Source of the DNA: Candidatus Curtissbacteria bacterium
GTDB lineage: Bacteria > Patescibacteriota > Microgenomatia > Curtissbacterales > GWA2-41-24
Assembly: GCA_030647775.1 (NCBI GenBank)
Contig: JAUSJC010000010.1
Coordinates: 264,927-328,926, forward strand
Direction: 5' to 3'
DNA: 64,000 nt
The notes below the pieces were generated by a model that was not told where the DNA came from, made no database searches, and worked only from the letters and a program-made list of their open reading frames with translations. Every line of letters begins with the position of its first letter. Positions within the stretch are counted from its first letter, which is position 1. The position numbers and the translations under genes are program-made. Below, in pieces: positions 2,867-58,134 of the stretch.

Positions 2867-4032
2867 AGAAACTTCTAGTTGCTCTATTTTTTATTGCCGT
2901 TTTTCTAGCAGGTTCGAGTTCTACATCCGCAATCACGGAATCAGAATGTGATCAAGGTAGCACAGATTCCGGTTGTGTCGACTACTTTACAAACAAAATA
3001 AACCAACTCTCTTCGCAAGCCAACACTCTTTCCGGTCAACTGGCCCAGTTTAATAGCCAAATCCTGTTAACTCAAGTTAAAATAGCCGACGCCCAGGTAA
3101 CTATAGATAAACTGGAAAAAGAAATTGGCGCGCTTGGTACCAGAATCGGCTACATTGCAACCTCTGTAGATAAACTCCAGGTACTTCTTAAACAAAGAAT
3201 CGTCGCAACTTACCAGCAGGGTTTTGTTTCCAATCTGGAAATCATTATGTCGTCACAAAACTTTTCCGATTTTATCCTGCGGGCCCAATATTTAAGACAA
3301 GTCCAGGAAAACGACAGGAAAATTCTGGCAAGCCTCCAGCAGACTAAGGCCAATTATGCAACCCAGAAAGACGACCGCGAGATTAAACAAGCCCAGATTG
3401 AAGAAAGCCAAAAGAAACTAGTTGCCTTAAAAGCAGATCTCGACCAACAAAAAGTATCTAAGCAAGCGCTTCTTAAACTGACTCAAAACGATGAAAGCCG
3501 ATATCAACAGCTGTTGGCAGCAGCTCTGGCTGAAAAGAAAGCTATATCTGCAGCCTTTTCTGACGCCGTTTCGAGGCTAAATTCTGAGGAAGGGTCTCCA
3601 GTTTCGCAGGGTCAAACGATTGCCGTGATGGGTAATTCTGGAGCACCTAACTGTTCTAGTGGCGCTCATCTTCACTTTATGGTTCTTAAAGATGGAATCG
3701 CCCAAAATCCGGCGAACTATCTAAAAAATATTTCTCCGGTTTGGGATAATTCCCCGGATTCCCCATTTGGCTTTTCCGGATCTTGGGATTGGCCGCTTTC
3801 TGGTCCAAGTATCACACAGGGTTTTGGGATGACTTACTGGGCAAGACTTGGTTGGTACAATGGCAGTATTCATGACGGTATTGATATGGTTGGTGGACCA
3901 ACAATAGTTGCCCCCCGCGCTGGGAAATTAATCCTCGGTGCAACCTCCTGTGGTTCCAGCACCCTAAAGTATGCGGCCATCAAACACAACGATGACTCAG
4001 GCATAATCACCCTCTATCTTCATATTCTGTAA
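2863..4032 (+). CDS. EnvC-like murein hydrolase activator / M23 peptidase with N-terminal coiled coil
   Basis: Signal peptide, a long Q/K/L-rich coiled coil, then an M23 (LytM) domain with GAHLHF. This is the expected partner of FtsEX, and its start overlaps the ftsX stop. Confidence 0.8.
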   Translation: MKKLLVALFFIAVFLAGSSSTSAITESECDQGSTDSGCVDYFTNKINQLSSQANTLSGQLAQFNSQILLTQVKIADAQVTIDKLEKEIGALGTRIGYIATSVDKLQVLLKQRIVATYQQGFVSNLEIIMSSQNFSDFILRAQYLRQVQENDRKILASLQQTKANYATQKDDREIKQAQIEESQKKLVALKADLDQQKVSKQALLKLTQNDESRYQQLLAAALAEKKAISAAFSDAVSRLNSEEGSPVSQGQTIAVMGNSGAPNCSSGAHLHFMVLKDGIAQNPANYLKNISPVWDNSPDSPFGFSGSWDWPLSGPSITQGFGMTYWARLGWYNGSIHDGIDMVGGPTIVAPRAGKLILGATSCGSSTLKYAAIKHNDDSGIITLYLHIL

Positions 4033-4070: not shown

Positions 4071-4991
4071 GTGGCAAAACTCGCTGCGTTAGTAATTTCC
4101 TTCCTAGCCCTTTTCGTTTTTGCGGAACTTGTTTTCGCCGAAAATCTTCTTTTGAACCCATCATTCGAGGATACTACCGGCGGTTCTCCAAACTCATGGA
4201 CTAAAAATGTAAGCACAGCTACTTTGTCTACGTCAACTACCGCCAAAGCTGGTACAGTGTCAGCGTCAATCAATAAAACAAATAGTACAACTGGGCTAAT
4301 CTACTTATATCAAGATATTGATGTGGAACCGGACGCCTTTTATTCTTTGTCCGGTTATGCAATTAAGAATAGTCCTAATTTTAGCTGGGTGATTTTACGT
4401 ATAAGCTGGAGAAGTTCTAGCGGGGAAATTAGTCAAACCGATTCCCCTCGATTAACATCTGATTCGTCTGATTTCCAATCGCTGAAAATAGATTCAGTAC
4501 AAGCGCCAAGCCAGGCGATAAAGGCCAGAATTGAACTCGCCGCCAATATTGTAACTGCTAATCCTAACAATCCAGCCCTTTTTGATGATGTAGATTTTTC
4601 CCAGATTCCGGCGCCCAACCAACCAACCTCTACACTTGCACCAATGTCTTCACCCACACCTCTTAAATCTCCGTCGCCAACCCCAACTGCTTTGCCAAAA
4701 TCTCCGACACCATCACCCCTAAAATCACCGGCGCCTGCTCCGCAAGTCTTAGCCGAATCTTCCCAAAGCGCCGCGCCGTCGGCCAGCCCAAGTTCATCTC
4801 CGGCATCAAACCAACAAAGCCCTCTGGACACAATTAAAAATAACCCCAAAACTGCTTTAATCCTTGTCGGCTCCGGCCTTATTTTAATCGGTTTATCATC
4901 GGCTTTTTATGTGTGGTATTCTAAGCTCTTGGGAAAAGGTCCAATAAAAAATGCCGAAGGCACTGAGCGAAGTCGAAGTGAAGACGATTAA
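4071..4991 (+). CDS. Cell-surface protein: signal peptide, CBM4/9-like domain, Pro/Ser/Thr-rich linker, C-terminal TM anchor
   Basis: The N-terminus reads MAKLAALVISFLALFVFA then NLLLNPSFEDT, which is CBM4/9-like. Next comes a low-complexity SPSPTPTALPKSPTPSP linker and a C-terminal hydrophobic helix. The C-terminal TERSRSEDD tail is encoded by a repeat motif. Confidence 0.55.
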   Translation: MAKLAALVISFLALFVFAELVFAENLLLNPSFEDTTGGSPNSWTKNVSTATLSTSTTAKAGTVSASINKTNSTTGLIYLYQDIDVEPDAFYSLSGYAIKNSPNFSWVILRISWRSSSGEISQTDSPRLTSDSSDFQSLKIDSVQAPSQAIKARIELAANIVTANPNNPALFDDVDFSQIPAPNQPTSTLAPMSSPTPLKSPSPTPTALPKSPTPSPLKSPAPAPQVLAESSQSAAPSASPSSSPASNQQSPLDTIKNNPKTALILVGSGLILIGLSSAFYVWYSKLLGKGPIKNAEGTERSRSEDD

Positions 4992-6156
4992 AATATCAAA
5001 GTCCGAAACACAAACCCAAAAACTCGGGGAAACTCTTGGGAAGTCATTAAAAGCCGGGGATATTGTTGCCCTGTATGGCGATCTTGGTGCCGGCAAGACC
5101 GTTTTTGTTAAAGGTATCGCCAAAGGCCTGGGCATTAAAAAGAGAATTCTCTCGCCGACCTTTGTCTTTATACGTTCTTACCCGCTTACGGGTGAAAAGC
5201 AGTTTTATCATGTCGATCTTTATCGCGGCCAAAGCCTTGAAGATTTTGAAGCGCTGGGGCTTGAAGAACTATTTTCCAAAAATAACATTGTTGTTTTGGA
5301 ATGGGCTGGGAAAATTGCTAAAATATTGCCTCAAAAACGGATCGATATCAATATAGAAAAAGTCGAAGATACTGAGCGTAGTCGAAGTAAAGATGAAAAT
5401 ACAAGAAAAATCACCATCACTTCACCTGTCATTGCGAGCGCAGCGAAGCAATCTCATAACGAGTCTTCGAGTTACAAGCGCTCTTATATTGTTCGAGCGA
5501 AGTCGAGAACTTCCTCTTCTGTCATCCTGAACTCGTTTCAGGATCTTAAAAAAGTCGTAGATCCTGAGCAAAGTCGAAGGGCCGCCTCCATTTTAAAATC
5601 TGGCGGTGTCGTTATTTTCCCGACCGATACGGTTTACGGTATTGGCTGTAGGTACGACGATAAGGACGCCCTCGACCGTATCTATAAAATTAAGTCAAGG
5701 CCAAAAGACGTACTGTTTCCCATTCTTGTATCAAGCGTCAAACAGGTCGAACGTTTAGCTATCATTACTCCCTCCGCCCGCGAGTTGATAGAAAAATATT
5801 GGCCCGGCGGCCTAACAATAATTCTCTCCACCCGTCATCCTGAACAATGTCATCCTGAACTCGATTCAGGATCTGTAATTGTTTCAGGACTCAATCAAAA
5901 AATCGGTTTCCGCATGCCGGACCACCAAGAAATCTTATCGATGATCGATCTTGTCGGTGTCCCAATAATCGGTACCTCCGCCAATTTCCATGGGCAGTCG
6001 TCCGCAGCGTCTTTTGAAGATCTGGATCCTAAACTCATTAAGCTCGCCGATTTTGTTATCAAAGGTACCTGCCGTAAGGGTGTAGAATCAACAGTAGTCG
6101 ATGCAACTGCAAACCATTTAAAAATCTTAAGACAAGGAGCAGTCACACTACGATGA
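4951..6156 (+). CDS. tRNA t6A biosynthesis: TsaE (P-loop ATPase) domain, repeat-derived linker, TsaC/YrdC/Sua5 domain, all in one continuous ORF
   Basis: The N-terminal 150 aa match TsaE/YjeE (GDLGAGKTVFVKGIAKGL). Residues from about 210 match TsaC/YrdC (SGGVVIFPTDTVYGIGC, GFRMPDH, GTSANFHGQ). The roughly 60-aa stretch between them is encoded by a repeat element with no stop codon. No ATG, GTG or TTG lies in frame ahead of the TsaC domain, so a separate tsaC start is not visible. Confidence 0.7.
   Translation: MPKALSEVEVKTIKISKSETQTQKLGETLGKSLKAGDIVALYGDLGAGKTVFVKGIAKGLGIKKRILSPTFVFIRSYPLTGEKQFYHVDLYRGQSLEDFEALGLEELFSKNNIVVLEWAGKIAKILPQKRIDINIEKVEDTERSRSKDENTRKITITSPVIASAAKQSHNESSSYKRSYIVRAKSRTSSSVILNSFQDLKKVVDPEQSRRAASILKSGGVVIFPTDTVYGIGCRYDDKDALDRIYKIKSRPKDVLFPILVSSVKQVERLAIITPSARELIEKYWPGGLTIILSTRHPEQCHPELDSGSVIVSGLNQKIGFRMPDHQEILSMIDLVGVPIIGTSANFHGQSSAASFEDLDPKLIKLADFVIKGTCRKGVESTVVDATANHLKILRQGAVTLR
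5420..5585. repeat. Palindromic repeat element, copy A (in-frame linker between the TsaE and TsaC domains)
   Basis: It contains gtcattgcgagcgcagcgaagcaatctc and the hairpin atcctgaactcgtttcaggat (5523-5543), followed by a gagcaaagtcgaag motif. It is homologous to the elements at 5835-5876 and 6490-6648. Confidence 0.6.
5835..5876. repeat. Repeat element fragment, copy B, in-frame inside the TsaC domain
   Basis: gtcatcctgaacaatgtcatcctgaactcgattcaggatctg, with the hairpin atcctgaa-ctcga-ttcaggat at 5852-5872. It encodes HPEQCHPELDSGS at a loop position that is longer than in E. coli YrdC. Confidence 0.55.
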
Positions 6157-6180
6157 TACGAATCATCGTAGTAAAATATC

Positions 6181-6489
6181 ATGATTTTAAAAATTGATTC
6201 GACAAACCGCGAAAAAATTACAGTTTCGCTCGACGACACAAAAATCATTGAGGAGCAAAAACTCGGGTCTCAAGTTCTCCTGCCGCTGATTGTCAAAATT
6301 CTCAAAAAGCAAAAAGCCACTTTTGCCGATATTTCCGAAATTAAGGTTAACATCGGCCCCGGTTCTTTTACGGGGACAAGGGTTGGAGTAGCCGTTGCCA
6401 ACGCGCTGGGATTTGCCTTAAATATCCCCGTTAATGGCAAAAAAGGTAAAATAGCATTACCTAAATATGAAAAATCAAAATTCGACTAA
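6181..6489 (+). CDS. tsaB: TsaB/YeaZ-like protein, N-terminal domain only (truncated relative to full-length TsaB)
   Basis: 102 aa with the NIGPGSFTGTRVGVAVANALGFALNIPV motif characteristic of TsaB/Kae1-family N-domains. It is about 100 aa rather than the usual 220 or so. The stop codon directly abuts repeat element copy C. Confidence 0.6.
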   Translation: MILKIDSTNREKITVSLDDTKIIEEQKLGSQVLLPLIVKILKKQKATFADISEIKVNIGPGSFTGTRVGVAVANALGFALNIPVNGKKGKIALPKYEKSKFD

Positions 6490-6648
6490 CATCTCACGTC
6501 ATTGCGAACCCTTCCCCTGTCATTCTGCGCGGAGCGAAAGAATCTCATCAAGTCAGGATAAACTCCGCGAAGCAATCTCTACGATTGTCATCTCTTCGAG
6601 CCTGAGCCTCAGAGCCGAAGGCCTGAACTCGTTTCAGGATCTAAAAAA
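6490..6648. repeat. Palindromic repeat element, copy C (intergenic, between tsaB-like and the epimerase)
   Basis: It shares gtcattgcga, gcgaagcaatctc, tcttcgag and the hairpin cctgaactcgtttcagg (6622-6640) followed by atctaaaaaa with copy A. The track ORF 6467..6655 lies wholly inside it. Confidence 0.6.
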
Positions 6649-6651
6649 CAA

Positions 6652-7563
6652 ATGAGCAGAATTCTTGTAACGGGCGGAGCCGGTTTCATCGGTGGACATG
6701 TAACTAAGATTTTACTTGACGAGGGTCACGATGTTGTCGTCCTCGACAACTTGTCCAAAGGCCATAAAGATTCTGTTGATAAAAGAGCGCAACTAATCGT
6801 CGGAGATATGGCTGATCCCGTCAAAACAAAAGAAGCGCTATCCGGTGCCGACGCCGTCATTCACATGGCCGGCCTGATTGTTGTACCCGAATCGGTTAAA
6901 GACCCCATCAAATATGCCCAAAATAATGTGCTTGGCTCGGTCAGTTTGCTTGAATCGATGAGAGAAACTGGTGTCAAGAAAATTATTTTCTCATCATCGG
7001 CGTGCGTTTACGGCACTCCAGATACTTTACCAATCAAAGAAGATGCGCCGCTTCGCCCGGATAATCCTTACGGCGCCACCAAAGCGTCAATTGAATCTTT
7101 CCTTCAGGCCTATCACGCCAATTTTGGTTTTGATGTCACAATTCTCCGCTACTTCAATCCTTACGGCCCCGGAGAATTGCATGACCCGGAAACCCACGCT
7201 ATCCCAAACTTCATCAAATCTGCTCTTTCAAAAAAACCGATACCTCTTTACTGGAAAGGGGAGCAGGTTAGAGATTTTATTTATATCGAAGACCTCGCCC
7301 GTGCCCATACGGACGTTCTGAGTCTTGCGGGTTTTAATATCTTTAATCTTGGCACGGAAAAAGGCGTGAAAGTGAAAGATGTCATTGACAAAATCTTTGA
7401 AATCGTGGGCTTCGAAGTCGAAGTTAAAGATCTTGGCGAGCGCCTGGGCGACGTGGCGGCAAACTACGCCTCAAGCGAAAGACTCCACGAAGCCGTCGGT
7501 TGGCAGGCAAAAGTGAACCTCAAAGACGGCTTAAAGCAAACAATCGAATTCTTCAAAAAATAA
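6652..7563 (+). CDS. NAD-dependent epimerase/dehydratase (UDP-glucose 4-epimerase family)
   Basis: The N-terminus is ILVTGGAGFIGGHV and the catalytic Y-x3-K lies in YGATKAS. Length and layout match GalE-like SDR enzymes. Confidence 0.8.
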   Translation: MSRILVTGGAGFIGGHVTKILLDEGHDVVVLDNLSKGHKDSVDKRAQLIVGDMADPVKTKEALSGADAVIHMAGLIVVPESVKDPIKYAQNNVLGSVSLLESMRETGVKKIIFSSSACVYGTPDTLPIKEDAPLRPDNPYGATKASIESFLQAYHANFGFDVTILRYFNPYGPGELHDPETHAIPNFIKSALSKKPIPLYWKGEQVRDFIYIEDLARAHTDVLSLAGFNIFNLGTEKGVKVKDVIDKIFEIVGFEVEVKDLGERLGDVAANYASSERLHEAVGWQAKVNLKDGLKQTIEFFKK

Positions 7564-32632: not shown

Positions 32633-33382
32633 ATGCGTCTTTCCATCGTTATGCCTGTTTACAATGAAGGGGAAATTATCCCCGAGACAGTAAAACGGAT
32701 TCATGAACAAGTCAAAACGCCGTTTGAACTCTTAATTGTCTACGATATGGAAGGAGATACCACTGTTGACGCCGTAAAAAAAATCCGGAATAAATACAAA
32801 AGTGCAAAGTTAGTCAAAAATATTTATGGCAGGGGAGCATTAAATGCCATTAAAACCGGTTTTACAAAAGCAAAAGGCGATGCCGTTTGTGTCATGATGG
32901 CCGATTTAACCGACGACCCGCAAACCTTAAACGAAATGATGAGGAAATTTGACGCAGGTTTTGATATTGTCTCCGGTTCCCGCTATATGCCCGGCGGCAA
33001 ACAAATCGGAGGTCCTTTTTTGAAGCAGCTTATGTCAAAAACTGCCGGCATTAGTCTCCACTTTCTTGCGGGCATTCCCACGTGGGATCCAACCAACTCT
33101 TTCAGGCTCTATTCCAGCAGATTTCTAAAAAAGGCCAAGATCGAATCAAACGGAGGATTCGAACTTGGCATAGAATTAACAGTAAAAGCCTATTTCGGCG
33201 GTTATAAAGTTACCGAGGTCCCGACAACCTGGGATTATCTCTCAAAGGAATCAAGATTTCTGCTTAAAAAATGGCTGCCGAAATATTTAAAATGGTATCT
33301 CTGGGCGCTTGAAAAAAGATTGCAGGGATATCCGATTTCGAGTTTACGAGAAACAAGCTCTCTTAAAAAAAGTGTAAAATGA
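32633..33382 (+). CDS. GT2 glycosyltransferase (Dpm1/GtrB-like)
   Basis: LSIVMPVYNEGE, the D-x-D of MADLTDD, and a C-terminal amphipathic region. Confidence 0.75.
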   Translation: MRLSIVMPVYNEGEIIPETVKRIHEQVKTPFELLIVYDMEGDTTVDAVKKIRNKYKSAKLVKNIYGRGALNAIKTGFTKAKGDAVCVMMADLTDDPQTLNEMMRKFDAGFDIVSGSRYMPGGKQIGGPFLKQLMSKTAGISLHFLAGIPTWDPTNSFRLYSSRFLKKAKIESNGGFELGIELTVKAYFGGYKVTEVPTTWDYLSKESRFLLKKWLPKYLKWYLWALEKRLQGYPISSLRETSSLKKSVK

Positions 33383-34764: not shown

Positions 34765-34899
34765 GGAAATACATTGAGTTTAAGTTTAATATAATAAGGA
34801 AGGAGTATCCTTCCTTGCGAGAATTTTGCTACTATTGAAATCGTTGTTTCAGTAGTGCTCCATTCTCTAAGGGAAGGAGTAAACTGTCGGATTAACCTT

Positions 34900-36705
34900 A
34901 TGAAAAAGAATCTTATTTTGAACGAAAATCAGAGAACCACGGCCTTTAGACCGTGGGAATCTATTTTTATTATCTTCTTGTTTTTTTTCTCAATTATTAT
35001 CTCAAGCCCTTTTCTAAAACCCGGATTTTATACGGTGCATGATGATCAGCAATTCGCCAGGCTTTTCGAATTTGATAAATCTCTAAGATCCGGTCAAGTC
35101 CCGCCGCGTTGGGTCGAAGACTTAGGCTTTGGTTTTGGCTATCCGCTGTTTGTATTTTATCCGCCGCTTGTCTATTTTTTGGGAGAGGCGTTTCATCTTG
35201 CTGGTTGGGGATATATCGATTCGATAAAACTTGTCTTTTTTATATCAGTATTCGGATCGGCAGTTGCCATGTACATTTTGACTAGAGAATTCTGGGGGAA
35301 GCTCGAGGCCTTTACCTCCAGCATGTTTTACATCTTCGCTCCTTATAGAGCTCTTGATATCTACGTTAGAGGGGCCTTAGCGGAAAGTTTTTCATTTGTT
35401 TGGCTGCCTCTTCTCTTCTGGTCATTTTACAAGCTGCAAAAAACCCAAAAGCCAGTCTATATTATAGCTTCCGGGTCTTTTTTGGCTCTCCTTATGCTCA
35501 CCCATAATTTAATATTTATTCCTTTCATGCTGATTCTTCCTATTTTCCTCCTTTTCCTTCTTTGGCAATCTAAAAGCAAAAAGCTATTCCTAATTGGAAG
35601 TCTTATTTCTTTTATTATTGCTTTTGGAGCCAGTGCCTTTTTTTGGATACCGGCACTTTTGGAAAAAAGATTTACAATCGTTGACCAATTACTTTTAGTT
35701 AATCTTGCCGATTTTCGAATGCATTTTGTTTATCCCGAGCAACTCTGGAATTGGCCATGGGGCTTTGGCGGTTCAGCGCCCGGACTAACAGACGGCATCT
35801 CTTTCAAAATAGGTAAGCTCCACGTTATTGTCTCACTTCTTGCATTTAGCTTAACAATACTACAGCTTGTCAAAGACAAGATAAAATCAAAACAATCAAC
35901 TATTTCGAGTCCACGAGAAACAAGCGCTCTTATATTTTTTGCCCTATTCTTATTTTCGGCATTTATGACCACATCTTACTCGCAGTTGATCTGGGATTTT
36001 ATACCCCCTCTTGCCTATCTTCAATTCCCTTGGCGTTTTCTGACATTTGTTATTCTGACAGGTTCAATCTTGGCAGGTGCCTTTATCTATTTTTTAAGGC
36101 TAGAGATTTTAAAAATAGTTTTTTCGGTACTTTTAATCTCTCTTTTAATTTTTCCGAACCTTAAGCTTTTTAAGCCCCAGACCTACAGGGAAAATTTAAC
36201 GGACAAAATTGTGACCTCAAAGGAGGTCATTAATTGGGATGTTTCATCATCGTCATTTGAGTACGCGCCAAAAGGCGTCGAGCTTTATAAAAATAGCCGG
36301 GGAGCCAATGTCATCAAAATTGAAAAATCCCAAATCCCCAAGGAAAAACTAGAAATTTTATCAGGGGTAGCCCAAATTAATTTGTCAAAAAATAATCCGT
36401 CGGATTTAGAGTTTGATATCAATGCCAAAGAAGACACTAAACTCAAAGCAAACATTTTTTCCTTTCCGGGATGGCAATTAAAAATTGATGGGAATCTGTC
36501 ACCAATTAACGACGATAACAACCTTAAGTTGATCACATTCAATATTCCGTCGGGGTTGCACCATGTAGAACTCGCCTTCAAAAACAGCCTGGTCATAAGT
36601 CTAGCAAACTTGATAACGCTTATGACACTGGTGGCACTTGTAATAATTATTATGTTTAGGAATAATCAACGAGTTAAAACAAAACTAAAATATGTCAGAC
36701 CCTGA
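34900..36705 (+). CDS. YfhO-superfamily-like polytopic membrane protein (paralog of 27754 and 48911)
   Basis: GFYTVHDDQQFARLFEF...YPLFVFYPPLVYFL and a C-terminal FSFPGWQLKIDGN. Start taken at the internal ATG (MKKNLIL). Confidence 0.55.
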   Translation: MKKNLILNENQRTTAFRPWESIFIIFLFFFSIIISSPFLKPGFYTVHDDQQFARLFEFDKSLRSGQVPPRWVEDLGFGFGYPLFVFYPPLVYFLGEAFHLAGWGYIDSIKLVFFISVFGSAVAMYILTREFWGKLEAFTSSMFYIFAPYRALDIYVRGALAESFSFVWLPLLFWSFYKLQKTQKPVYIIASGSFLALLMLTHNLIFIPFMLILPIFLLFLLWQSKSKKLFLIGSLISFIIAFGASAFFWIPALLEKRFTIVDQLLLVNLADFRMHFVYPEQLWNWPWGFGGSAPGLTDGISFKIGKLHVIVSLLAFSLTILQLVKDKIKSKQSTISSPRETSALIFFALFLFSAFMTTSYSQLIWDFIPPLAYLQFPWRFLTFVILTGSILAGAFIYFLRLEILKIVFSVLLISLLIFPNLKLFKPQTYRENLTDKIVTSKEVINWDVSSSSFEYAPKGVELYKNSRGANVIKIEKSQIPKEKLEILSGVAQINLSKNNPSDLEFDINAKEDTKLKANIFSFPGWQLKIDGNLSPINDDNNLKLITFNIPSGLHHVELAFKNSLVISLANLITLMTLVALVIIIMFRNNQRVKTKLKYVRP

Positions 36706-40093: not shown

Positions 40094-40879
40094 ATGAATA
40101 TCTCAGCCCTTGTTCTCGCTAGAAATGAAGAGGAAATGATCAAAGATTGTCTAAGTCAACTAAATTTTGTTGATGAAATAATTATTCTAGACCAGGGCTC
40201 AACAGATAAAACCCGCCAAATCGCCAAAAAATATACAAAAAAAATATTTACAACATCCTATGAATCATTTGCGAAAAATCGTGAAATCTTAGCTGCTCAC
40301 GCAAAAAGTGATTGGCTACTTTACATAGATGTCGACGAAAGGTTTGATAATGAGGTAATTGAAGAAATTAAAGAAGCTATCAGGCAGCAAAAATATCAGG
40401 CCTTCTACTTCCCCAGAAAAAACATCATTCTTGGAAAATGGCTCAGGCACGGCGGCTGGTTTCCGGATTACGTGCCGAAGCTTTTTGAAAGAGGTTCCTT
40501 AAAAGGTTGGACGGGGCAAGTTCATGAAAGCCCAAAGGTAGACGGGGCATTTGGATATTTCAAAACGCCCATTACGCATTTAACTGCCAGAAATTTAAGT
40601 TCGATGCTTGGAAAAACTATTAAATGGGCTAAGGTCGAAGCCGATCTGGCTTATAGTGCCAACCATCCCCGGGTAACAATCACCAGGGTTATTTGGGCAG
40701 CCGCCAAGGAATTCTCCGGACGTTATTTTGTAAAACTCGGTCTTCTGGATGGATTTATCGGTTTTATCGAAGCAGTCTATCAGGCCCTCCATCGAGCGAT
40801 AACCCTCGTCTATTTATGGGAAACACAAAATAATATTCAAGAATTGTTTGAAAAAACCAAGGACAAATTAAATGAATAA
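40094..40879 (+). CDS. GT2 glycosyltransferase (paralog of 38166)
   Basis: ISALVLARNEEEMIKDCL, YIDVDER, then WLRHGGWFPDY, which parallels WIRHSIWWPDY in the paralog. Confidence 0.7.
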   Translation: MNISALVLARNEEEMIKDCLSQLNFVDEIIILDQGSTDKTRQIAKKYTKKIFTTSYESFAKNREILAAHAKSDWLLYIDVDERFDNEVIEEIKEAIRQQKYQAFYFPRKNIILGKWLRHGGWFPDYVPKLFERGSLKGWTGQVHESPKVDGAFGYFKTPITHLTARNLSSMLGKTIKWAKVEADLAYSANHPRVTITRVIWAAAKEFSGRYFVKLGLLDGFIGFIEAVYQALHRAITLVYLWETQNNIQELFEKTKDKLNE

Positions 40880-41621
40880 GCACAGCTTTTCTTCGAATAA
40901 GCACAGCTTTTCTTCGAATAAGCATGGCTTTTCTTCGAATAAGCACTTTCTTTTTTACGACACTTATGAAAGACATAAAAAAATCGGCGGTTTAATCAAA
41001 AACGGTGAAACGGTACTGGATGTTGGCGGAGCCGCCAATCACCTGTCACAATTTGCCAAACCACGGAAGATTATCACTGCCAACCTGTCCGGTGGCGAAA
41101 ATTCCGATGTGATAATTAAGGGAGACAAATTACCTTTTAAAAATAATTCTTTTGACGTTGTTTGTTCAATTGATGTCCTTGAACATCTTCCCAAAAATGA
41201 TAGAGCGAAATTCATTAAAGAGTTAAAAAGGGTAGCAGCCAAAAGAATTATCTTGTCTTTTCCCATCCAAACCCCCCAGCATGAGGCCTACGAACGCCAA
41301 ACCCAAGAATGGCTCCAGTCCAAGGGGAAAGATGTCACCTATTTGAAAGAACACATAAAATTTGGACTTCCGGAAAAAGATGAAATCTTAAATATAACAA
41401 AGGGCCAAAAAACTGCTATGATTTATTCCGGCAATACCAATGTAAATAAATTCCTTTTCATGCTATTTATATTTGATCCAAGATTAAAATTCATAAGAAA
41501 ATTAACGTACTGCGCCAAACTTGTCTTTAATTTGGTAACGAACAGGTTGTTTTATGAGATCCTATCCAATAAAAAATTTAGAAAATCGGTAAATCGCGCC
41601 TACTTAATCATTGAAAAATGA
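40872..41621 (+). CDS. Class I SAM-dependent methyltransferase with a repeat-encoded N-terminus
   Basis: Motif I VLDVGGAANH and motif II FDVVCSIDVLEHL. The only in-frame ATG is at 40872, so the NKHSFSS repeats are translated if this start is used. Confidence 0.7.
   Translation: MNKHSFSSNKHSFSSNKHGFSSNKHFLFYDTYERHKKIGGLIKNGETVLDVGGAANHLSQFAKPRKIITANLSGGENSDVIIKGDKLPFKNNSFDVVCSIDVLEHLPKNDRAKFIKELKRVAAKRIILSFPIQTPQHEAYERQTQEWLQSKGKDVTYLKEHIKFGLPEKDEILNITKGQKTAMIYSGNTNVNKFLFMLFIFDPRLKFIRKLTYCAKLVFNLVTNRLFYEILSNKKFRKSVNRAYLIIEK
40874..40950. repeat. 21-bp tandem repeat gaataagcacagcttttcttc, about 3.7 copies
   Basis: Three full units (40874-40894, 40895-40915, and 40916-40936 carrying a ca-to-tg variant) plus a partial fourth. 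The array starts at the upstream stop codon and encodes (NKHSFSS)n at the methyltransferase N-terminus. Confidence 0.9.
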
Positions 41622-50662: not shown

Positions 50663-52274
50663 TCTATTACTCGTCATAATTATTGCTCTATCAATAGCCC
50701 TTCGTTTTTACCAGCTTGGCCAAAATCCGCCGGCATTGGATTGGGATGAAACCGCTCATGGCTATAACGCTTACAGTCTATTAAAAACAGGCCGCGACGA
50801 ATATGGTTATAAATTGCCGCTGTCAATAAGGTCATTTGACGACTATAAACCGCCGCTTTATACATACCTCGTAGTTCCGTCGGTTGCCGTCTTCGGCATT
50901 AATGATTTCGCTGTCCGCTTTCCGTCTGCTTTTCTTGGGGTTTTGGCAGTCTTTTTCACTTACCTGATGGTTTTTGAACTTTTCAAAAACAAAAATATTG
51001 CTCTTCTTGCCGCATTATTCTTAGCTATTTCTCCATGGCACGTTCAATTTTCAAGAGTCGCCTTTGAGACAAATAGTGCAACTTTTTGGTCGGTGCTTGG
51101 CACCTGGGCGTATTTAAAAGGCATGGATTCCAAAGGTAAAAAAATCACATTGTGGCTGTCACTAGCGGCAATAGCATTCGGTGCCAATCTCTACATGTAC
51201 CATAATGCCCGGGTTTTTATACCAATTTACTCACTCGCTCTTGTAATCCTTTTTCGGAAATTTATTCAAAAGAATATAAAATATATTATTCCTCCTCTCT
51301 TAATTTTCGCGATATTTATTGTATTTTTGATACCCATCATTTTCTCAATTTCCGGCCAGCTTAGATTCAAAGGTACCACAATTTTTTCCGACGTTTCTCC
51401 GCAGTTTCATGCCTCAGGCCTAATCGTCCAGGATGAAAAAGCCGGACTTGGAACCGTTGGCAAAATCTTGCATAACCGCCGCTTTGTCTACGTGCCTATT
51501 TTAATTGATAATTACCTTTCACATTTTCGCCCGACATTCCTTTTTATAACTGCCGATATGGAAAGGCATCACGCCCCCCAAATCGGTCTTTTATATTTTT
51601 GGGACCTGCCGTTTATTGTTGCCGGTATTTACTTTTTAATAAAAAACAAATTCGTTGCGTCTTCCAAAATTATCGTTTTATGGTGGTTTTTGATTTCTCC
51701 GGTAGCAGCCTCCGTAACTTGGGGAGTACCGCATTCTCTAAGGAGCGAGATTTTTCTGCCCACTTTCCAGATCTTTGCGGCAATTGGTGTTTATACCCTT
51801 TACACTTACTCAAAAAGGAAAAAACTCTTCGCAATCTTGGCGGCTATTACTCTTTTGGCCAATTTCACCTTTTATCTTCATCAATATTATGTTCATATGC
51901 CGTACGATTTTTCTAAATATTGGCTTTATGGCAGAAAAGAAGCAATAGAGTACACCGAAGCAAATAAAAATAAATACCAGCAAGTCATTGTTTCCACCAA
52001 GTTGGAACAGCCGCATGAGTTCTGGCTTTATTATTCAAAATACGACCCGGTTAAATATCTTTCAGAAGGTGGAACCGTTTCTGGCGGATTTTTAGAAGAT
52101 AGAAATAAATTCGATAAATATTTGTTCAAACCTATCGATTTTGCCAAGCAAAATGAAGAAGCAAAAACCCTATTCGTTGGCACGCCCAAAGAATTCCCTC
52201 CCGGTGTAAATATCCTAAAGCAAATAAATTATCTAAATGGCGAGCCGGCTATTTATATTATAGGCAATGACTAA
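50649..52274 (+). CDS. ArnT/PMT-family (GT39/GT83-like) GT-C glycosyltransferase, array paralog 1
   Basis: LRFYQLGQNPPALDWDETAHGYNAYS carries the D-E loop motif. Also YKPPLY and SPWHVQFSR. Confidence 0.75.
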   Translation: MLKNNLLLVIIIALSIALRFYQLGQNPPALDWDETAHGYNAYSLLKTGRDEYGYKLPLSIRSFDDYKPPLYTYLVVPSVAVFGINDFAVRFPSAFLGVLAVFFTYLMVFELFKNKNIALLAALFLAISPWHVQFSRVAFETNSATFWSVLGTWAYLKGMDSKGKKITLWLSLAAIAFGANLYMYHNARVFIPIYSLALVILFRKFIQKNIKYIIPPLLIFAIFIVFLIPIIFSISGQLRFKGTTIFSDVSPQFHASGLIVQDEKAGLGTVGKILHNRRFVYVPILIDNYLSHFRPTFLFITADMERHHAPQIGLLYFWDLPFIVAGIYFLIKNKFVASSKIIVLWWFLISPVAASVTWGVPHSLRSEIFLPTFQIFAAIGVYTLYTYSKRKKLFAILAAITLLANFTFYLHQYYVHMPYDFSKYWLYGRKEAIEYTEANKNKYQQVIVSTKLEQPHEFWLYYSKYDPVKYLSEGGTVSGGFLEDRNKFDKYLFKPIDFAKQNEEAKTLFVGTPKEFPPGVNILKQINYLNGEPAIYIIGND

Positions 52275-53865
52275 AAAATATCTGCTGGTAATAATCATTC
52301 TCGCCGCATTTTTGCGATTTTATAAACTTGCCTCCTTTCCTGTTTCTCTTTACTGGGACGAAGCGGCAATCGGCTATAATGCTTTTTCCATTGCCAAAAC
52401 CGGCCACGATGAGTATGGAAGAAAATTCCCTCTCCTTTTTCAGTCATTCAACGATTACAAACTACCGGGCTATATTTATACCGACTCCATTTTTATAAAA
52501 GTTTTCGATTTGTCGGAGTTTTGGGTTAGATTCCCGTCGGCGCTTTTTGGAACGTTTGCCGTTTTGTTAATTTACTTGTTGAATCGTAAAATTTTTAATG
52601 AAAATATAGCTCTTGCCTCCGCATTTTTGCTGGCAATTTCCCCTTGGCATTTACAATTTTCCCGGGCCGCTTTTGAAGCAAATGCGGCTTTGACCTTGGT
52701 CGTTTTGGGAATCGTCCTAATTTTTTACGGGTTCAGAAATAAAATAGCGGCTATGCTTTCACTGCCAATTTTGTTTTTATCATTTTATTTCTATCATTCT
52801 CCAAGAATCTTTGTTCCTGCTATCCTGCTTACGATAGCTTTTTTATACCGCAAAGAAATTGCCAAAAACGCAAAAGCATATATTGTCGGTTTGGTTGTTG
52901 GTGCAATATTGATTATCCCGATTTTAGTCCAAATTGTTTCGCCTCAAGGCATGAAGCGGGTAGGAGAGGTAAGCCTTTTTTCAGACCGGTCAATAATCGA
53001 ACCGTATGTTCTTATCAGAGAATCGGTAAACATCCCTTCATCTGCAATTTTCTTAAACCGCAGAATTCCGCTTGCGTTTGAAATACTTCATAGTTACTTT
53101 TCGCATTTTTCACCAGGGTTCTTATTTTTCGGTGACGATCCAAACCCAAGGCAAAAATCGGCCCTCCACGGCAATCTTTATTTGGTTGAAATCCCGCTTC
53201 TTTTGGCGGGCTTATGGATGCTGTTAAAACAAAAAGACAACAAATCTAAACTCTTCATCGTCGCTTGGCTTTTAGTTGCTCCTATCCCGGCGGGTTTAGC
53301 TAGAGAATTCCCGCATTCCTTGCGCGCGCTTTTAATGCTTCCTGCACTTGTCACCCTATCCGCCATAGGTTTTACCTCTGCCTTCAGGATCAAGTTCGCG
53401 AAATTAATAATCCCGATAGTCTTTTCGCTTTCAATAATCAATTATTTATTCACTTATTACGTGGTATCCCCGCAAACGAGTAGCGCCTCTTGGGCATATG
53501 GTTATGAGCAAGCCTTTGTCAAAGTCGCCGCACTTGAGGGGGATTACGATCGGGTTATTTTCACCGGCAACTACTGGAAACCATATATTTTCTATCTTTT
53601 TTATAATAAAGTTGATCCCGGCATCTTTGCCAAAAGCCGCAGCGAAACGGAATTGGGTAAGTACAGATTCGGCGTGGCCGCTTGGGATGGCGGCAAAAAT
53701 TTTGACAACACGAGGGTTGAAGAACTCAAATCTGGCAAAACCCTTGTCGTACTTTCGCCCCAGGAGTTTTCAACTCTTATGTCTGGAGAAAAACTTAAAT
53801 CACTTCAAACGATTTACGATTTCGCCGGTACCAACGAAATATTTAAGATAGGGCAGTGGCAATGA
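52267..53865 (+). CDS. ArnT/PMT-family GT-C glycosyltransferase, array paralog 2
   Basis: LRFYKLASFPVSLYWDEAAIGYNAFS and SPWHLQFSR. Confidence 0.75.
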   Translation: MTKKYLLVIIILAAFLRFYKLASFPVSLYWDEAAIGYNAFSIAKTGHDEYGRKFPLLFQSFNDYKLPGYIYTDSIFIKVFDLSEFWVRFPSALFGTFAVLLIYLLNRKIFNENIALASAFLLAISPWHLQFSRAAFEANAALTLVVLGIVLIFYGFRNKIAAMLSLPILFLSFYFYHSPRIFVPAILLTIAFLYRKEIAKNAKAYIVGLVVGAILIIPILVQIVSPQGMKRVGEVSLFSDRSIIEPYVLIRESVNIPSSAIFLNRRIPLAFEILHSYFSHFSPGFLFFGDDPNPRQKSALHGNLYLVEIPLLLAGLWMLLKQKDNKSKLFIVAWLLVAPIPAGLAREFPHSLRALLMLPALVTLSAIGFTSAFRIKFAKLIIPIVFSLSIINYLFTYYVVSPQTSSASWAYGYEQAFVKVAALEGDYDRVIFTGNYWKPYIFYLFYNKVDPGIFAKSRSETELGKYRFGVAAWDGGKNFDNTRVEELKSGKTLVVLSPQEFSTLMSGEKLKSLQTIYDFAGTNEIFKIGQWQ

Positions 53866-55646
53866 CTAAAAACAAGCTTTTTATTCGCAGAAAAGCTCTG
53901 CTTATTCGCAGAAAAGCTCTGCTTATTCGCAGAAAAGCTCTGCTTATTCGCAGAAAAGCTCTGCTTATTCGCAGAAAAGCTCTGCTTATTCGCAGAAAAG
54001 CTCTGCTTATTCGCAGAAAAGCTTTGCTTAATTCGAGCACCACGAGAATCAAGGTTCTGAGTAAAACTCAGGTTCTTCTTTTTCTCGCAATTGCCATTTT
54101 ATCCTTTGGTCTAAGATTTTATAATCTTTCGGAAAATCCTCCGGGCCTTTATTGGGATGAGGCGGCCTTTGGTTACAACGCTTATTCAATTTTAAAAACA
54201 GGGCACGATGAACATGGGCGCTTTTTGCCATTATTTTTTGAAAGCTTTGGGGACTGGAAACTACCGGGCTATTTCTATCTCCTTGTTCCGTCAATAAAAC
54301 TTTTTGGCCTGTCAGAATTATCGGTACGCTTCCCTTCTGCCTTACTTGGTTCACTGGCGCCGCTTATTTTCTTTCTGCTTATCAAAAAAATTACCAAAAA
54401 TACAAACCTGGCCTTGACGAGTATGTTTTTTCTGGCAATTTCCCCCTGGCATATCCAGTTCTCAAGGTCTGGTTTTGAGTCTACTCCAAGTCTTTTCTTC
54501 GTTGTTTCTGGCGTCTATCTGATGCTTTTAGGGATCGAGACAAAGAAAATATCAATACTTTCTTTGTCTTTTTTTCTTTTTGTTCTTTCAATCTACACAT
54601 ACCATGCTTCCCGAATTTTTGTTCCGCTTCTGGTTATTTCAATAATTCTTACAAACTTGAAGTGGATTAAGCAAAATATTAAACTTTGGGCTTTTCCAGC
54701 CCTCATCGGGCTAATTTTGTTGATTCCGATGATTATATTCACCCTTTCCCCAAATGGTAGAAGCAGGGCAATTTCCGAGTCGGCTTTTAAAGAAGATGAT
54801 CGCCAAACTGCCCGCCTAAACTTTGACCAGAAGTCCAAAAAACCCTTGCGCTTCTTGTCCGGGTATCTTTTCAATCCTCCTGCTTATTATACGCAAGTTG
54901 TGCTTATCGGGTACTTGAATCATTTTTCCCCGACCTTCCTTTTTATAAACGGTGACCAGATAGGCCGCCATTCCCAAGTCGATATGGGGCAAATTTATCT
55001 GTTTGATGCTATCTTTTTATTTCTGTCCTTCTCCGCTTATAAAAAACTTAAAGGAGACGGCAAAAAAATAATGCTTTTTTGGCTGCTGCTTGCACCAATT
55101 CCGGCTAGCTTTGTCACCCCGACGCCCCATGCTCAAAGAGCCCTTCAGATGTCCATACCCCTGGCTTTTCTCTCAAGCCTCGGGGCTTATTATTTTTTCT
55201 CGGCCAAAAAACTAATTGTTATTAAAATTCTTCTTGCCGGAGTTGTGATATTTTCCTTTGCCGTTTTTATCCACCTCTTATTTGTTCACTATCCTAAAAA
55301 GTTTGCTGCCGATTGGCAGGACGGCTATAGGCAAATGGTTCAAGAGGTCAAAAAATACCAAGATGACTATCCAAAAGTATACATAACCAATATAAACAAT
55401 GTCCCCTATATTTATTTACTTCTTTACTTGCCATACGATCCAGAAAAATTTGTCAAAGAAAATAGCACCAAGGGCGCTTTTGGCAAGTATGTTTTTATTG
55501 ACCCAAATTACAATATATATAATAAAGGAAGAGTTCTTTATGTTGCACCCTCATGGCAAAAAGAAGACGGCGAAAGGCTTTCTACCGTCAATGATTCTTC
55601 CGGCAGGCATATTTATTCACTTTGGGATATAGGGGGTAAAAATTAA
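53856..55646 (+). CDS. ArnT/PMT-family GT-C glycosyltransferase, array paralog 3, with a repeat-encoded basic N-terminal extension
   Basis: GTG start, then (IRRKALL)x7, then LRFYNLSENPPGLYWDEAAFGYNAYS and SPWHIQFSR. No canonical start codon lies between the repeat and the first TM helix. Confidence 0.7.
   Translation: MAMTKNKLFIRRKALLIRRKALLIRRKALLIRRKALLIRRKALLIRRKALLIRRKALLNSSTTRIKVLSKTQVLLFLAIAILSFGLRFYNLSENPPGLYWDEAAFGYNAYSILKTGHDEHGRFLPLFFESFGDWKLPGYFYLLVPSIKLFGLSELSVRFPSALLGSLAPLIFFLLIKKITKNTNLALTSMFFLAISPWHIQFSRSGFESTPSLFFVVSGVYLMLLGIETKKISILSLSFFLFVLSIYTYHASRIFVPLLVISIILTNLKWIKQNIKLWAFPALIGLILLIPMIIFTLSPNGRSRAISESAFKEDDRQTARLNFDQKSKKPLRFLSGYLFNPPAYYTQVVLIGYLNHFSPTFLFINGDQIGRHSQVDMGQIYLFDAIFLFLSFSAYKKLKGDGKKIMLFWLLLAPIPASFVTPTPHAQRALQMSIPLAFLSSLGAYYFFSAKKLIVIKILLAGVVIFSFAVFIHLLFVHYPKKFAADWQDGYRQMVQEVKKYQDDYPKVYITNINNVPYIYLLLYLPYDPEKFVKENSTKGAFGKYVFIDPNYNIYNKGRVLYVAPSWQKEDGERLSTVNDSSGRHIYSLWDIGGKN
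53881..54037. repeat. 21-bp tandem repeat ttattcgcagaaaagctctgc, about 7.5 copies
   Basis: Seven full units (53881-54027; the last has a c-to-t change) plus a partial eighth. The unit is the reverse complement of the 40874 repeat unit with 2 mismatches in 21. Confidence 0.9.
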
Positions 55647-55710
55647 AAAATTAATTTTCGTCCTTTTAGCACTAACCTTTTTCTTCAGGCTTTGGCAAAC
55701 AACCGGCTGC

Positions 55711-56208
55711 GTGCATTTTAACGGTTTTTATTTTAATCCACTCTCTGTCAAGATTAATGTCGAATCCCAAACCGGTCTTGATCCTTCAGGCCAAAAGGTA
55801 ATATCAAAAATCTTTCATAATAAAATAGTTACCTTTCCGTTTGAGGCCTCAAAGTCTTTTGCAAAAACAATCGATCCGGGATTCCTCTTAGAAGTACTCG
55901 GCCCGGCGGGGTTTTTACTGCTGATTCTATCTCCGGTCGAAATTTTTAGGAGAAAAAGAAAACTGGGGTTTATCCACTTAACAGTAGTCCTGGCAGTTCT
56001 TATCTTTTCCCTAAGACCAATATCACCCAAAATCGCCTTTTGGGCCGTATCAATATCTTTTTATACCCTTTCTCTTTGGGGCATCGGTGCGGTAGTCAAG
56101 AACAAATATATTAGTTTTTTCTTTATCGTATTAATTTTTTACTCGTTGTGGTATTTTGCTATAAATTGGCAAATGCCGGCACTTTGCAATGAAATCTTTT
56201 TTAACTAA
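55711..56208 (+). CDS. Small membrane protein, paralog of 57688..58134
   Basis: HNKIVTFPFEASKSFAKTIDPGFLLEVLG aligns with HNKIGIYASEFSRCYANVFDPNFIYHTVG of the other copy. There are three C-terminal TM helices. The frame is open upstream to 55633 and encodes a signal-like KKLIFVLLALTFFF segment, but no canonical start codon is present there. Confidence 0.5.
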   Translation: MHFNGFYFNPLSVKINVESQTGLDPSGQKVISKIFHNKIVTFPFEASKSFAKTIDPGFLLEVLGPAGFLLLILSPVEIFRRKRKLGFIHLTVVLAVLIFSLRPISPKIAFWAVSISFYTLSLWGIGAVVKNKYISFFFIVLIFYSLWYFAINWQMPALCNEIFFN

Positions 56209-57691: not shown

Positions 57692-58134
57692 AAATCTTTT
57701 TACTAATAATATTTTCGGCAGTGATTATTTCAGTTAGGGCAAATGCCAGCCTGCCGATTTGCAATTTGGATACCGCAAAACAAGCTATTCCTCCCCGGAT
57801 TTTTGCCGAACAAACGATAGACGGTAGAGATCAAAATATCACGCTTACCAGATTTTTACACAATAAAATCGGAATTTACGCTTCGGAGTTTAGCAGGTGC
57901 TACGCAAATGTCTTCGACCCCAATTTTATATATCACACCGTTGGGATAGTCGGAATTATCACCTGGCTTTATTTTGTATACCAAATCATCCAAAGAAAAT
58001 ATTATTTTCTGCTTATTGTTCTACTTGCTTTACCTCTTCTGCCGTTTCTAAAATTTTCGCTTCTGCCAATTTTATTTGCCTACAAGCTTTTTGCTATCAT
58101 AGGACTGGGGTTTCTGCTGTCTAAACTAAAATGA
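57688..58134 (+). CDS. Small secreted/membrane protein, paralog of 55711..56208
   Basis: Signal peptide MKIFLLIIFSAVIISVRANA, the conserved HNKIGIYASEF...DPNF block, and two or three C-terminal TM helices. Confidence 0.5.
   Translation: MKIFLLIIFSAVIISVRANASLPICNLDTAKQAIPPRIFAEQTIDGRDQNITLTRFLHNKIGIYASEFSRCYANVFDPNFIYHTVGIVGIITWLYFVYQIIQRKYYFLLIVLLALPLLPFLKFSLLPILFAYKLFAIIGLGFLLSKLK

Follow-up and report, generated by a model that had tools for sequence, protein, structure and literature searches.

Short tagged hairpin repeats within and around a tsaE::tsaC fusion gene of Candidatus Curtissbacteria

A 64-kb stretch of a Candidatus Curtissbacteria metagenome-assembled genome (MAG; Candidate Phyla Radiation, CPR, or Patescibacteria), hereafter the window, carries short palindromic repeats in and beside a fused tsaE::tsaC gene of N6-threonylcarbamoyladenosine (t6A) biosynthesis. 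These repeats are very probably small CGTC/TGTC-tagged units of the repetitive extragenic palindrome (REP) type, together with two related hairpin types, that have piled up at permissive sites around an operon formed by tsaE::tsaC and a short tsaB gene (mini-tsaB). Five such sites would have been occupied: the upstream gene boundary, a β-turn at the end of TsaE, the TsaE-TsaC linker, a surface loop of TsaC, and the spacer between tsaB and the following epimerase gene. An initial annotation of this DNA had instead described three copies of one ∼160-bp element that fused tsaE to tsaC and truncated tsaB. An essential t6A gene does contain small palindromic repeats that are translated in frame; the single element, the fusion event, and the truncation are not borne out.

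Repeat modules in the tsaE::tsaC-mini-tsaB operon

The fusion open reading frame (ORF) encodes 401 amino acids and is 100% identical to an NCBI Curtissbacteria MAG protein on a 526,960-bp contig. Pfam places a TsaE domain (PF02367) at residues 17-143 (E = 3e-38) and a Sua5/YrdC domain (TsaC, PF01300) at residues 214-396 (E = 1e-47). The motifs that are invariant in the homolog alignment are GxxGxGKT (Walker A) and HxDxYR for TsaE, and FPTDT and SxN (SAN) for TsaC. The match of the downstream ORF to the TsaB/TsaD family PF00814 is confined to positions 30-84; an NAD-dependent epimerase gene follows this ORF and begins at 6652. Nearly all large ORFs of the window (51 of 53) lie on the + strand, as do all of its repeat units.

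We scanned the region for conserved cores and tagged hairpins, which resolved it into short units; for the repeated motifs, shuffles served as the chance level. The clearest unit, module B, has the form (C/T)GTC-ATCCTGAA-CTCGW-TTCAGGAT-CT, where W is T or A; tagged copies begin at 5520 and 5848, and an untagged copy lies at 6622. Its 26-mer hairpin, GTCATCCTGAACTCG(T/A)TTCAGGATCT, occurs at 5521-5546 and 5849-5874 with none expected in shuffles; the form at 5521, GTCATCCTGAACTCGTTTCAGGATCT, differs from that at 5849 by one mismatch and finds no match in shuffles of the window. The 20-nt core of module B recurs at 6622-6641, giving three matches where 0.01 are expected. Module A, GTCATTGCGAGCGCAGCGAAGCAATCTC at 5428-5455, recurs as an 82% copy, CTTCCCCTGTCATTCTGCGCGGAGCGAAAGAATCTCAT, at 6511-6548, and as a third copy split into GTCATTGCGA (6498-6507) and GCGAAGCAATCTC (6567-6579) with ∼59 nt between them. 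The stem changes between the copies tagged at 5427 and 6518 are compensatory (GC/GC to CT/AG). The repeated hairpin and the gtcattgcga-type motifs noticed initially are therefore real, and correspond to modules B and A.

Two further hairpin types had been missed. Module C, present in four copies, retains a constant GAGCGAAGTCGA core (core starts 4965, 5374, 5495, and 5566) between stems that differ but are complementary: CACT/AGTG (4961), TACT/AGTA (5370), GTTC/GAAC (5491), and CCT/AGG (5563). Module D is a hairpin with a CGAGTCTTCGAG core that lies at 5460; related copies at 33339 and 35906 carry compensating stems, TTTC/GAAA. Besides units built as (C/T)GTC-AT-stem-loop-stem, there are thus GAGCGAAGYCGA-core hairpins. 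The host genes and repeat units are as follows.

4951..6156, + strand: tsaE::tsaC fusion ORF, 401 amino acids (Pfam scan and homolog alignment)
4944..4987, + strand: module C0, hairpin CACT-GAGCGAAGTCGA-AGTG at 4961-4980
5353..5396, + strand: module C1, TACT-GAGCGTAGTCGA-AGTA at 5370-5389
5427..5455, + strand: module A1, TGTC-ATTGC-GAGCGCAGCGAA-GCAAT-CTC, coding VIASAAKQS
5458..5493, + strand: module D1, hairpin AAC-GAGTCTTCGAG-TT followed by ACAAGCGCTCTTATATT
5491..5510, + strand: module C2, GTTC-GAGCGAAGTCGA-GAAC
5520..5547, + strand: module B1, TGTC-ATCCTGAA-CTCGT-TTCAGGAT-CTT, CGTC-2-type REP by sequence (see below), read as VILNSFQDL
5545..5588, + strand: module C3, CCT-GAGCAAAGTCGA-AGG at 5563-5580, closing the linker cluster
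5833..5890, + strand: nested REP pair in a TsaC surface loop, outer unit CGTC-ATCCTGAA-CAAT..ATTGT-TTCAGGAC
5848-5874, + strand: inner unit of the nested pair, TGTC-ATCCTGAA-CTCGA-TTCAGGAT-CT, read as CHPELDSGS
6181..6489, + strand: mini-tsaB, 102 amino acids, N-terminal half of TsaB only, intact
6490..6648, + strand: intergenic mosaic between tsaB and the epimerase gene (tagged hairpin scan and alignment)

Module C0 sits where the upstream ORF, at its end, overlaps the start of tsaE, and it codes an extra N-terminal peptide, ALSEVEV, that is absent from homologs; an alternative GTG start at 4978 would leave this module outside the protein. Module C1 codes VEDTERSRSKDE in the turn between the last two β strands of TsaE, and the same insert is found in two orthologous loci (L121 and L122). 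The TsaC domain begins at ∼5590, after module C3. Relative to the closest homolog, the loop insert comprises ∼19 residues, HPEQCHPELDSGSVIVSGL (nt 5833-5890), so that its position in a TsaC loop agrees with the initial annotation and its length, given there as ∼13 residues, does not.

The third cluster starts directly after the stop codon of mini-tsaB, as first described. It opens with an outer A unit, CGTC-ATTGC-GA...GCGAA-GCAAT-CTC (6497-6507 and 6567-6579), split by an inner A unit, TGTC-ATTCT-GCGCGGAGCGAA-AGAAT-CTC, at 6518-6546. Further 3′ lie a TGTC-tagged palindrome (6586-6621) and the untagged B hairpin, CCTGAACTCGTTTCAGGATCT, at 6622-6642. A 62-aa ORF at 6467..6655 (...HCEPFPCHSARSERISSSQDKLREAIS...GLNSFQDLKNK), nearly all of it within this cluster, is probably a spurious ORF of the kind that repeats generate. 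Such odd peptides and spurious ORFs are a warning for annotation.

In an alignment of 5410-5590 with 6480-6660, a 38-nt 5′ module and a 27-nt 3′ module are the only blocks common to these two clusters, with no similarity seen between their middles, and the copy at 5833-5890 has the hairpin module B only. No terminal inverted repeats bound the ∼160-bp clusters (inverted-repeat listing and pairwise alignment), and there are no target-site duplications. A composite pattern, in which the end of module A is followed after 40-70 nt by module B, gave no match in metagenome contigs, whereas each module alone is found at no fewer than 120 loci. We therefore reject a single-element model; the sequence shows the three supposed 160-bp elements to be mosaics, assembled from independent hairpin modules of 20-35 nt. 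Inteins and introns were also considered, and dismissed on size and on the absence of a matching domain or Rfam family.

The linker cluster (5418-5585) spans 168 nt, or 56 codons, and is open only in the frame of the gene; 5% of shuffles are free of stops. In agreement with the initial annotation, it lies between the Pfam-defined TsaE and TsaC domains and leaves a single 401-aa ORF. Module B is read in two frames within this one protein, as VILNSFQDL at 5521 and as HPELDSGS at 5852, no other sense frame of the module being free of stops. An AlphaFold2 model based on a 25-sequence alignment has a mean predicted local distance difference test (pLDDT) score of 81, with values below 50 only at residues 1-6, 163-201, and 302-314 and a dip to 55 at residues 141-150. 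In this model, the low-scoring segments are those encoded by the repeats; they are predicted to have no regular structure and to be set between well-predicted secondary structural elements.

At the DNA level, the linker cluster as a whole folds no better than shuffles (z-score -0.27). Only individual hairpins and the nested loop insert rise above them, the nested palindrome of 66 nt having a z-score of -4.05. No Rfam family matches the window at gathering thresholds.

Ancestry of the fusion and occupancy of the same sites in relatives

Dozens of the best 120 homologs, all from relatives, contain both PF02367 and PF01300 and are 316-384 amino acids long. The shortest of them, P0024 (316 aa) and P0019 (318 aa), have almost no linker between the two domains when aligned, so the repeats entered an existing linker and fused no genes. 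On this comparison, the TsaE-TsaC fusion is ancestral, contrary to the initial proposal that the repeats created it, and the relatives show the very finding, a fusion already in place, that the initial annotation had named as refuting it. A repeat inside a fusion need not be its cause. Much of the variation in ortholog length, from 316 to 401 amino acids, is accounted for by the repeats.

The short TsaB protein has a similar history. Four independent assemblies agree in gene order, with a PcsB-like M23 peptidase followed by tsaE::tsaC, a PF00814 protein of 107-109 amino acids, and the epimerase. The small TsaB orthologs can be aligned over their whole length and have one C terminus in common, ...KYEKSKFD*. 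Because these syntenic orthologs are of this length and share this C terminus, the ∼100-aa TsaB is a trait of the lineage, not the product of truncation by a repeat, and the third cluster is simply intergenic. A C-terminal TsaB remnant downstream of that cluster, the check suggested at the outset, was likewise rejected: the orthologs stop at the same residue, and the epimerase comes next in conserved synteny. Solved TsaB chains have 206-251 residues, of which mini-TsaB matches residues ∼35-95, and the 102-aa protein does not contain the canonical two-lobed, ASKHA-type fold of full-length TsaB.

Fusions of t6A genes vary in Microgenomates, as the window and proteins P0026 and P0056-P0106 show. 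Besides TsaE-TsaC, there are TsaC-miniTsaB proteins (280-333 aa) and one TsaE-TsaC-TsaB triple fusion, P0026 (446 aa), among the best 120 homologs. The TsaB partner in these fusions retains only the N-terminal ∼100 residues of the canonical protein (206-251 aa). A review of t6A (PMC4615747) makes no mention of a TsaE-TsaC fusion or of a short-TsaB fusion architecture.

Relatives carry related or different inserts at the same sites. The linker of L121, the locus of the closest relative, contains module C1 and TGTC-ATCCT-GAGCGAAACGA-AGGAT-CT. Its flanks, TCTTCTGTCATCCTGA...GGATCTT, are identical between the window (5517-5547) and L121 (∼3470-3500), but they enclose different hairpin interiors: module B of the window has ACTCGTTTCA there, and L121 has GCGAAACGAA. 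Such a difference between orthologous linkers hints that one REP variant was replaced or converted by another at this position. The linker of L122 has module C1 and TGTC-ATCCCGAG...CGAGGGAT-CTC; that of L123 has a half-site duplication and, after it, TGTC-ATTCCCGC-GAAA-GCGGGAAT-CT followed by an inverted partner. The TsaC loops of L122 and L123 hold long palindromes of unrelated families.

Among 27 close homologs, the segment between the EW and FPTDT motifs has a basal length of 46-58 amino acids and reaches 103 in the window, the longest seen. The WPGG-GxRxP segment, basally 13-14 amino acids, is extended to 18-40 in 13 of the 27, with at least four classes of insert, and measures 31 in the window. 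These two permissive sites of one enzyme, taken repeatedly by at least four palindrome families, amount to a natural experiment. The tsaB-epimerase gap likewise varies, from 14 nt in L122 to 96 nt in L124 and 162 nt in the window, and in L124 it carries another tagged hairpin, TGTC-ATCCT-GAGCGGAGCGA-AGGAT-CT. The tsaB ortholog of L121 (4290-4316), near a contig end, reads NGSPRGEAGKK where others read NGKKGKI; its DNA, ctcgcctcgcggcgaagcgggc, looks like another insert with a GCGAAGC core.

Family membership and distribution of the units

Module B closely resembles the CGTC-tagged REPs of Di Nocera, De Gregorio & Rocco (2013, BMC Genomics 14:522). These have a CGTC tag (often TGTC or CCTC), a stem of 8-9 bp whose first pairs are A-T, a loop of 4-5 nt, and a 3-nt tail with the consensus CCA; they are multi-copy, mostly extragenic, and mostly head-to-head dimers, clusters are rare, intragenic units occur, and they were reported from five phyla with no associated transposase (Di Nocera et al., 2013). 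The tag is present in the window as TGTC at 5427, 5520, 5848, and 6518 and as CGTC at 5833 and 6497, and is missing from the B copy at 6622. The stem of module B, ATCCTGAA/TTCAGGAT, has 8 bp and begins with AT, and its loops, CTCGT and CTCGA, have 5 nt. A Sulfurovum CGTC-2 unit inside a ferredoxin-like gene codes RHSELVSGS (Di Nocera et al., 2013, supplement), which is the same reading of the unit as CHPELDSGS in the window. Because the published architecture matches and this peptide reading recurs in Sulfurovum, module B is, on sequence grounds, a CGTC-2-type REP.

The likeness to CGTC-2 REPs covers the (C/T)GTC tag, the 8-bp AT stem, the 5-nt loop, the presence of a 3-nt tail, the spread over many phyla, intragenic in-frame units coding ∼9-30 residues, and the absence of an associated transposase. 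The window differs in its CPR host, a group outside the 2013 survey, in its co-oriented clusters, in its CTN tails, and in the presence of short-stem hairpins with a 12-nt core. Modules A begin with AT but form only five Watson-Crick pairs (ATTGC/GCAAT and ATTCT/AGAAT), agreeing in part with the published stem. Instead of a 4-5-nt loop, modules A, C, and D have a conserved 12-nt core, unless G.A pairs are assumed. We infer that these cores hold GCGAAGC-like GNA mini-hairpins with flanking tandem G.A pairs, and propose such G.A-paired cores for ATTGCGAGCGCAGCGAAGCAAT and CACTGAGCGAAGTCGAAGTG as single-stranded DNA (ssDNA).

Other repeat systems offer partial parallels. Bacterial interspersed mosaic elements (BIMEs) and REP doublets forming hairpins (REPINs) are mosaic clusters or doublets of REPs mobilized by Y1 transposases known as REP-associated tyrosine transposases (RAYTs). 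The window units resemble them in forming clusters of short tagged hairpins with short spacers, and in occurring elsewhere as inverted doublets. In contrast, BIMEs and REPINs are GTAG-tagged, extragenic, and RAYT-associated, whereas here the tag is CGTC/TGTC, the orientation is direct, some units are intragenic, and the window has no RAYT gene. Miniature inverted-repeat transposable elements (MITEs), said to be inserted in frame in Coxiella, are likewise small non-autonomous repeats able to extend ORFs; the present clusters differ in having neither terminal inverted repeats nor target-site duplications and in that their composite is not repeated elsewhere.

Rickettsia palindromic elements (RPEs), described by Ogata and colleagues, are reportedly palindromic repeats lying in frame in essential genes of a host-dependent bacterium with a reduced genome, and RPE-1 is said to be a single element of 100-150 bp. 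The inserts in the window are similarly in-frame palindromes in loops and linkers that leave the fold intact, as judged from the homolog comparison, the reading frame, and low pLDDT only in the inserts. They differ in being mosaics of 20-35-nt units, and the link to RPEs is the published statement that R. conorii RPE-6 is CGTC-1 and RPE-4 is CGTC-4 (Di Nocera et al., 2013). The comparison with Rickettsia made in the initial annotation was apt, since the hairpin fits the superfamily that includes these two. In-frame insertion of REPs or RPEs in linkers and loops has already been described for several phyla (Di Nocera et al., 2013). The decoration of permissive sites seen here is thus a known phenomenon in a new host lineage, which extends it to essential proteins of the CPR; the searchable full-text literature yielded nothing on REP or palindromic elements in Patescibacteria or CPR.

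We looked for exact matches to the 20-nt module B core, with each species represented by one genome, and for the 26-mer of module A, with one free N, in metagenome contigs. The module B core occurs at no fewer than 120 loci in about 15 phyla among the matches listed, compared with the five phyla reported in 2013. The CPR hosts listed are Falkow-, Sacchari-, Moran-, Roizman-, Woese-, Peri-, Dojka-, and Magasanikbacteria. Beyond the CPR, many Sphingomonadales appear, along with Bacteroidota, Rhodothermales, Balneolaceae, Campylobacterota, Desulfobacterota, Chloroflexota, Bacillota, Melainabacteria, Armatimonadota, Nitrospirota, Elusimicrobia, Treponema, an atribacterial family, and gammaproteobacteria. 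The sequence (C/T)GTCAT nearly always stands 5′ of the core in these loci, and the tails are CCA-like in alphaproteobacteria (Sphingomonadales) and mostly CT in CPR. An inverted partner hairpin lies within 100 nt of 49 of 125 module B copies. Seven of the 125 have an orphan 5′ half-site, GTCATCCTGAAC-N7-15-GTCATCCTGAAC, like that at 5834-5860 in the window. Most CPR copies of module B look extragenic, 20 of 24 not being spanned by a long open frame, a crude measure given that high-GC genomes yield long open frames by chance; elsewhere, the unit is dispersed.

The module A 26-mer, tagged C/T-GTC and with CA/TC as its tail, was found at a minimum of 120 metagenome loci; of 147 copies, 103 have within 90 nt an ATGAC tag, which marks an inverted partner. 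Module D was not enriched in 244 fetched loci (8 matches against 11 expected, none with flanking stems) and may be specific to this genome. Its two distant copies in the window, at 33339-33372 and 35906-35939, have the form TTTC-GAGTNNACGAG-AAA followed by ACAAGCKCTCTTA. The former lies at the 3′ end of a GT2 glycosyltransferase ORF (32633..33382), and the latter is translated in frame (SSPRETSALIF) in a 616-aa membrane protein (ORF 34855..36705). REP units also form regular tandem arrays in other genomes (L024, 126-634; L045, 4495-6190; L155, 3910-4903; L191, 1897-2223), with periods of 163 nt in Sphingomonas echinoides and, for module A, 121-124 nt in two metagenome contigs.

Origin of the units and competing explanations

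If tagged REP-type units did accumulate around this operon, they would have spread as non-autonomous hairpin DNA through an activity acting in trans, possibly, by analogy, a RAYT-like HUH/Y1 processing of ssDNA hairpins. The units would tend to land at or inside existing hairpins, and accumulation would proceed partly by their nesting into one another. Purifying selection in the essential gene would keep only in-frame, stop-free inserts in linkers and loops, and the encoded peptides would be tolerated passengers, not functional additions. A Pfam scan of 51 large ORFs in the window revealed no transposase domain, which agrees with the published statement that CGTC REPs have no dedicated transposase (Di Nocera et al., 2013). 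Nor does a REP-dense locus, L025, contain a REP-flanked transposase gene. The small gene sets of CPR bacteria, with REP-rich and REP-free genomes compared, may make the enzyme that mobilizes CGTC REPs tractable.

Several observations weigh against this account, in which mobility is a deduction. The tails in the window are CTT, CTG, CTA, or CTC, versus the CCA consensus; all copies are clustered and co-oriented with the genes, with no head-to-head dimers; and modules A, C, and D, with 3-5 Watson-Crick pairs and a 12-nt core, fit the published ranges only if G.A pairs are counted. The tagged units are confined to 4944-6648 (∼1.7 kb), with none in the other ∼62 kb of the window. An ancestral orthologous hairpin diversifying in place could also explain part of the linker pattern.

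This last idea can be taken further, to local duplication or slippage of an ancestral hairpin-containing linker with no insertion of a dispersed element. Near shared alignment columns, the linker inserts of the window, L121, L122, and L123 all open with (C)TGTCAT and close with GGATCT, and half-site duplications suggest slippage. We nevertheless consider an exclusively local origin unlikely: exact copies of the 20-26-nt units are found in unrelated loci and phyla, the units also lie elsewhere around the operon (loop and spacer), and the loop inserts of relatives belong to unrelated palindrome families. The hairpins could alternatively be selected cis-regulatory structures, such as mRNA stabilizers or processing sites, translational pauses, or DNA sites of the gyrase or integration host factor (IHF) type. 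Their common orientation with transcription, their placement at the borders of genes and of a domain and in a loop, and the occupation of the same sites in several relatives would suit such a role, and REPs have been proposed in the literature as RNA elements. Occupancy is variable, however, with none of these sites filled in P0024, P0019, or P0003; the sequences at one site differ among relatives, the whole linker folds no better than shuffles, and no Rfam family matches. A regulatory origin is therefore rather improbable.

A composite mobile element of ∼160 bp, RPE-1-like or MITE-like, inserted three times and fusing tsaE-tsaC and truncating tsaB, would account for the two end modules that the first and third clusters share in the same order, and for a gene frame free of stop codons. 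We regard it as very improbable in view of the dissimilar middles, the second cluster with its single module, the missing inverted repeats and target-site duplications, and the composite absent from metagenome contigs in which each module alone is common; the fusion and the short TsaB, moreover, occur in relatives lacking these elements. Chimeric joins at short ubiquitous repeats, introduced in assembly or binning, might be suspected in a MAG whose 20-26-mers recur in many co-occurring organisms. An artifact of this kind is scarcely credible here, with gene order and the flanks of every cluster colinear with four independent assemblies and the reading frame kept. Homologous inserts (module C1 and the TGTC unit in the linker) also recur in independent assemblies, and the units are shorter than typical assembly k-mers plus flanks.

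Accumulation of tagged REP-type units thus remains our preferred explanation. A stronger version, that CGTC/TGTC-tagged REPs are still actively spreading in CPR and insert preferentially in or next to existing hairpins, is conceivable if rather doubtful. The nested units, the orphan 5′ half-sites, and the differing interiors between identical flanks in the window and L121 are consistent with it. If it were true, the linker and loop of one essential enzyme would have been re-colonized over and over.

The rest of the window is occupied mostly by sugar-nucleotide and cell-envelope glycosylation genes, nearly all on one strand, including seven paralogous PMT_2-type membrane glycosyltransferase genes in a row (50700-63400). 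A 21-nt tandem repeat, TTATTCGCAGAAAAGCTCTGC, is present in ∼7 copies at 53881-54030, in the 5′ end of a PMT_2 glycosyltransferase ORF (53856..55646). Three copies of GAATAAGCACAGCTTTTCTTC lie at 40874-40946, in the 5′ end of a methyltransferase ORF (40872..41621); by our own comparison, this repeat is a near reverse complement of TTATTCGCAGAAAAGCTCTGC, matching at 18 of 21 positions.

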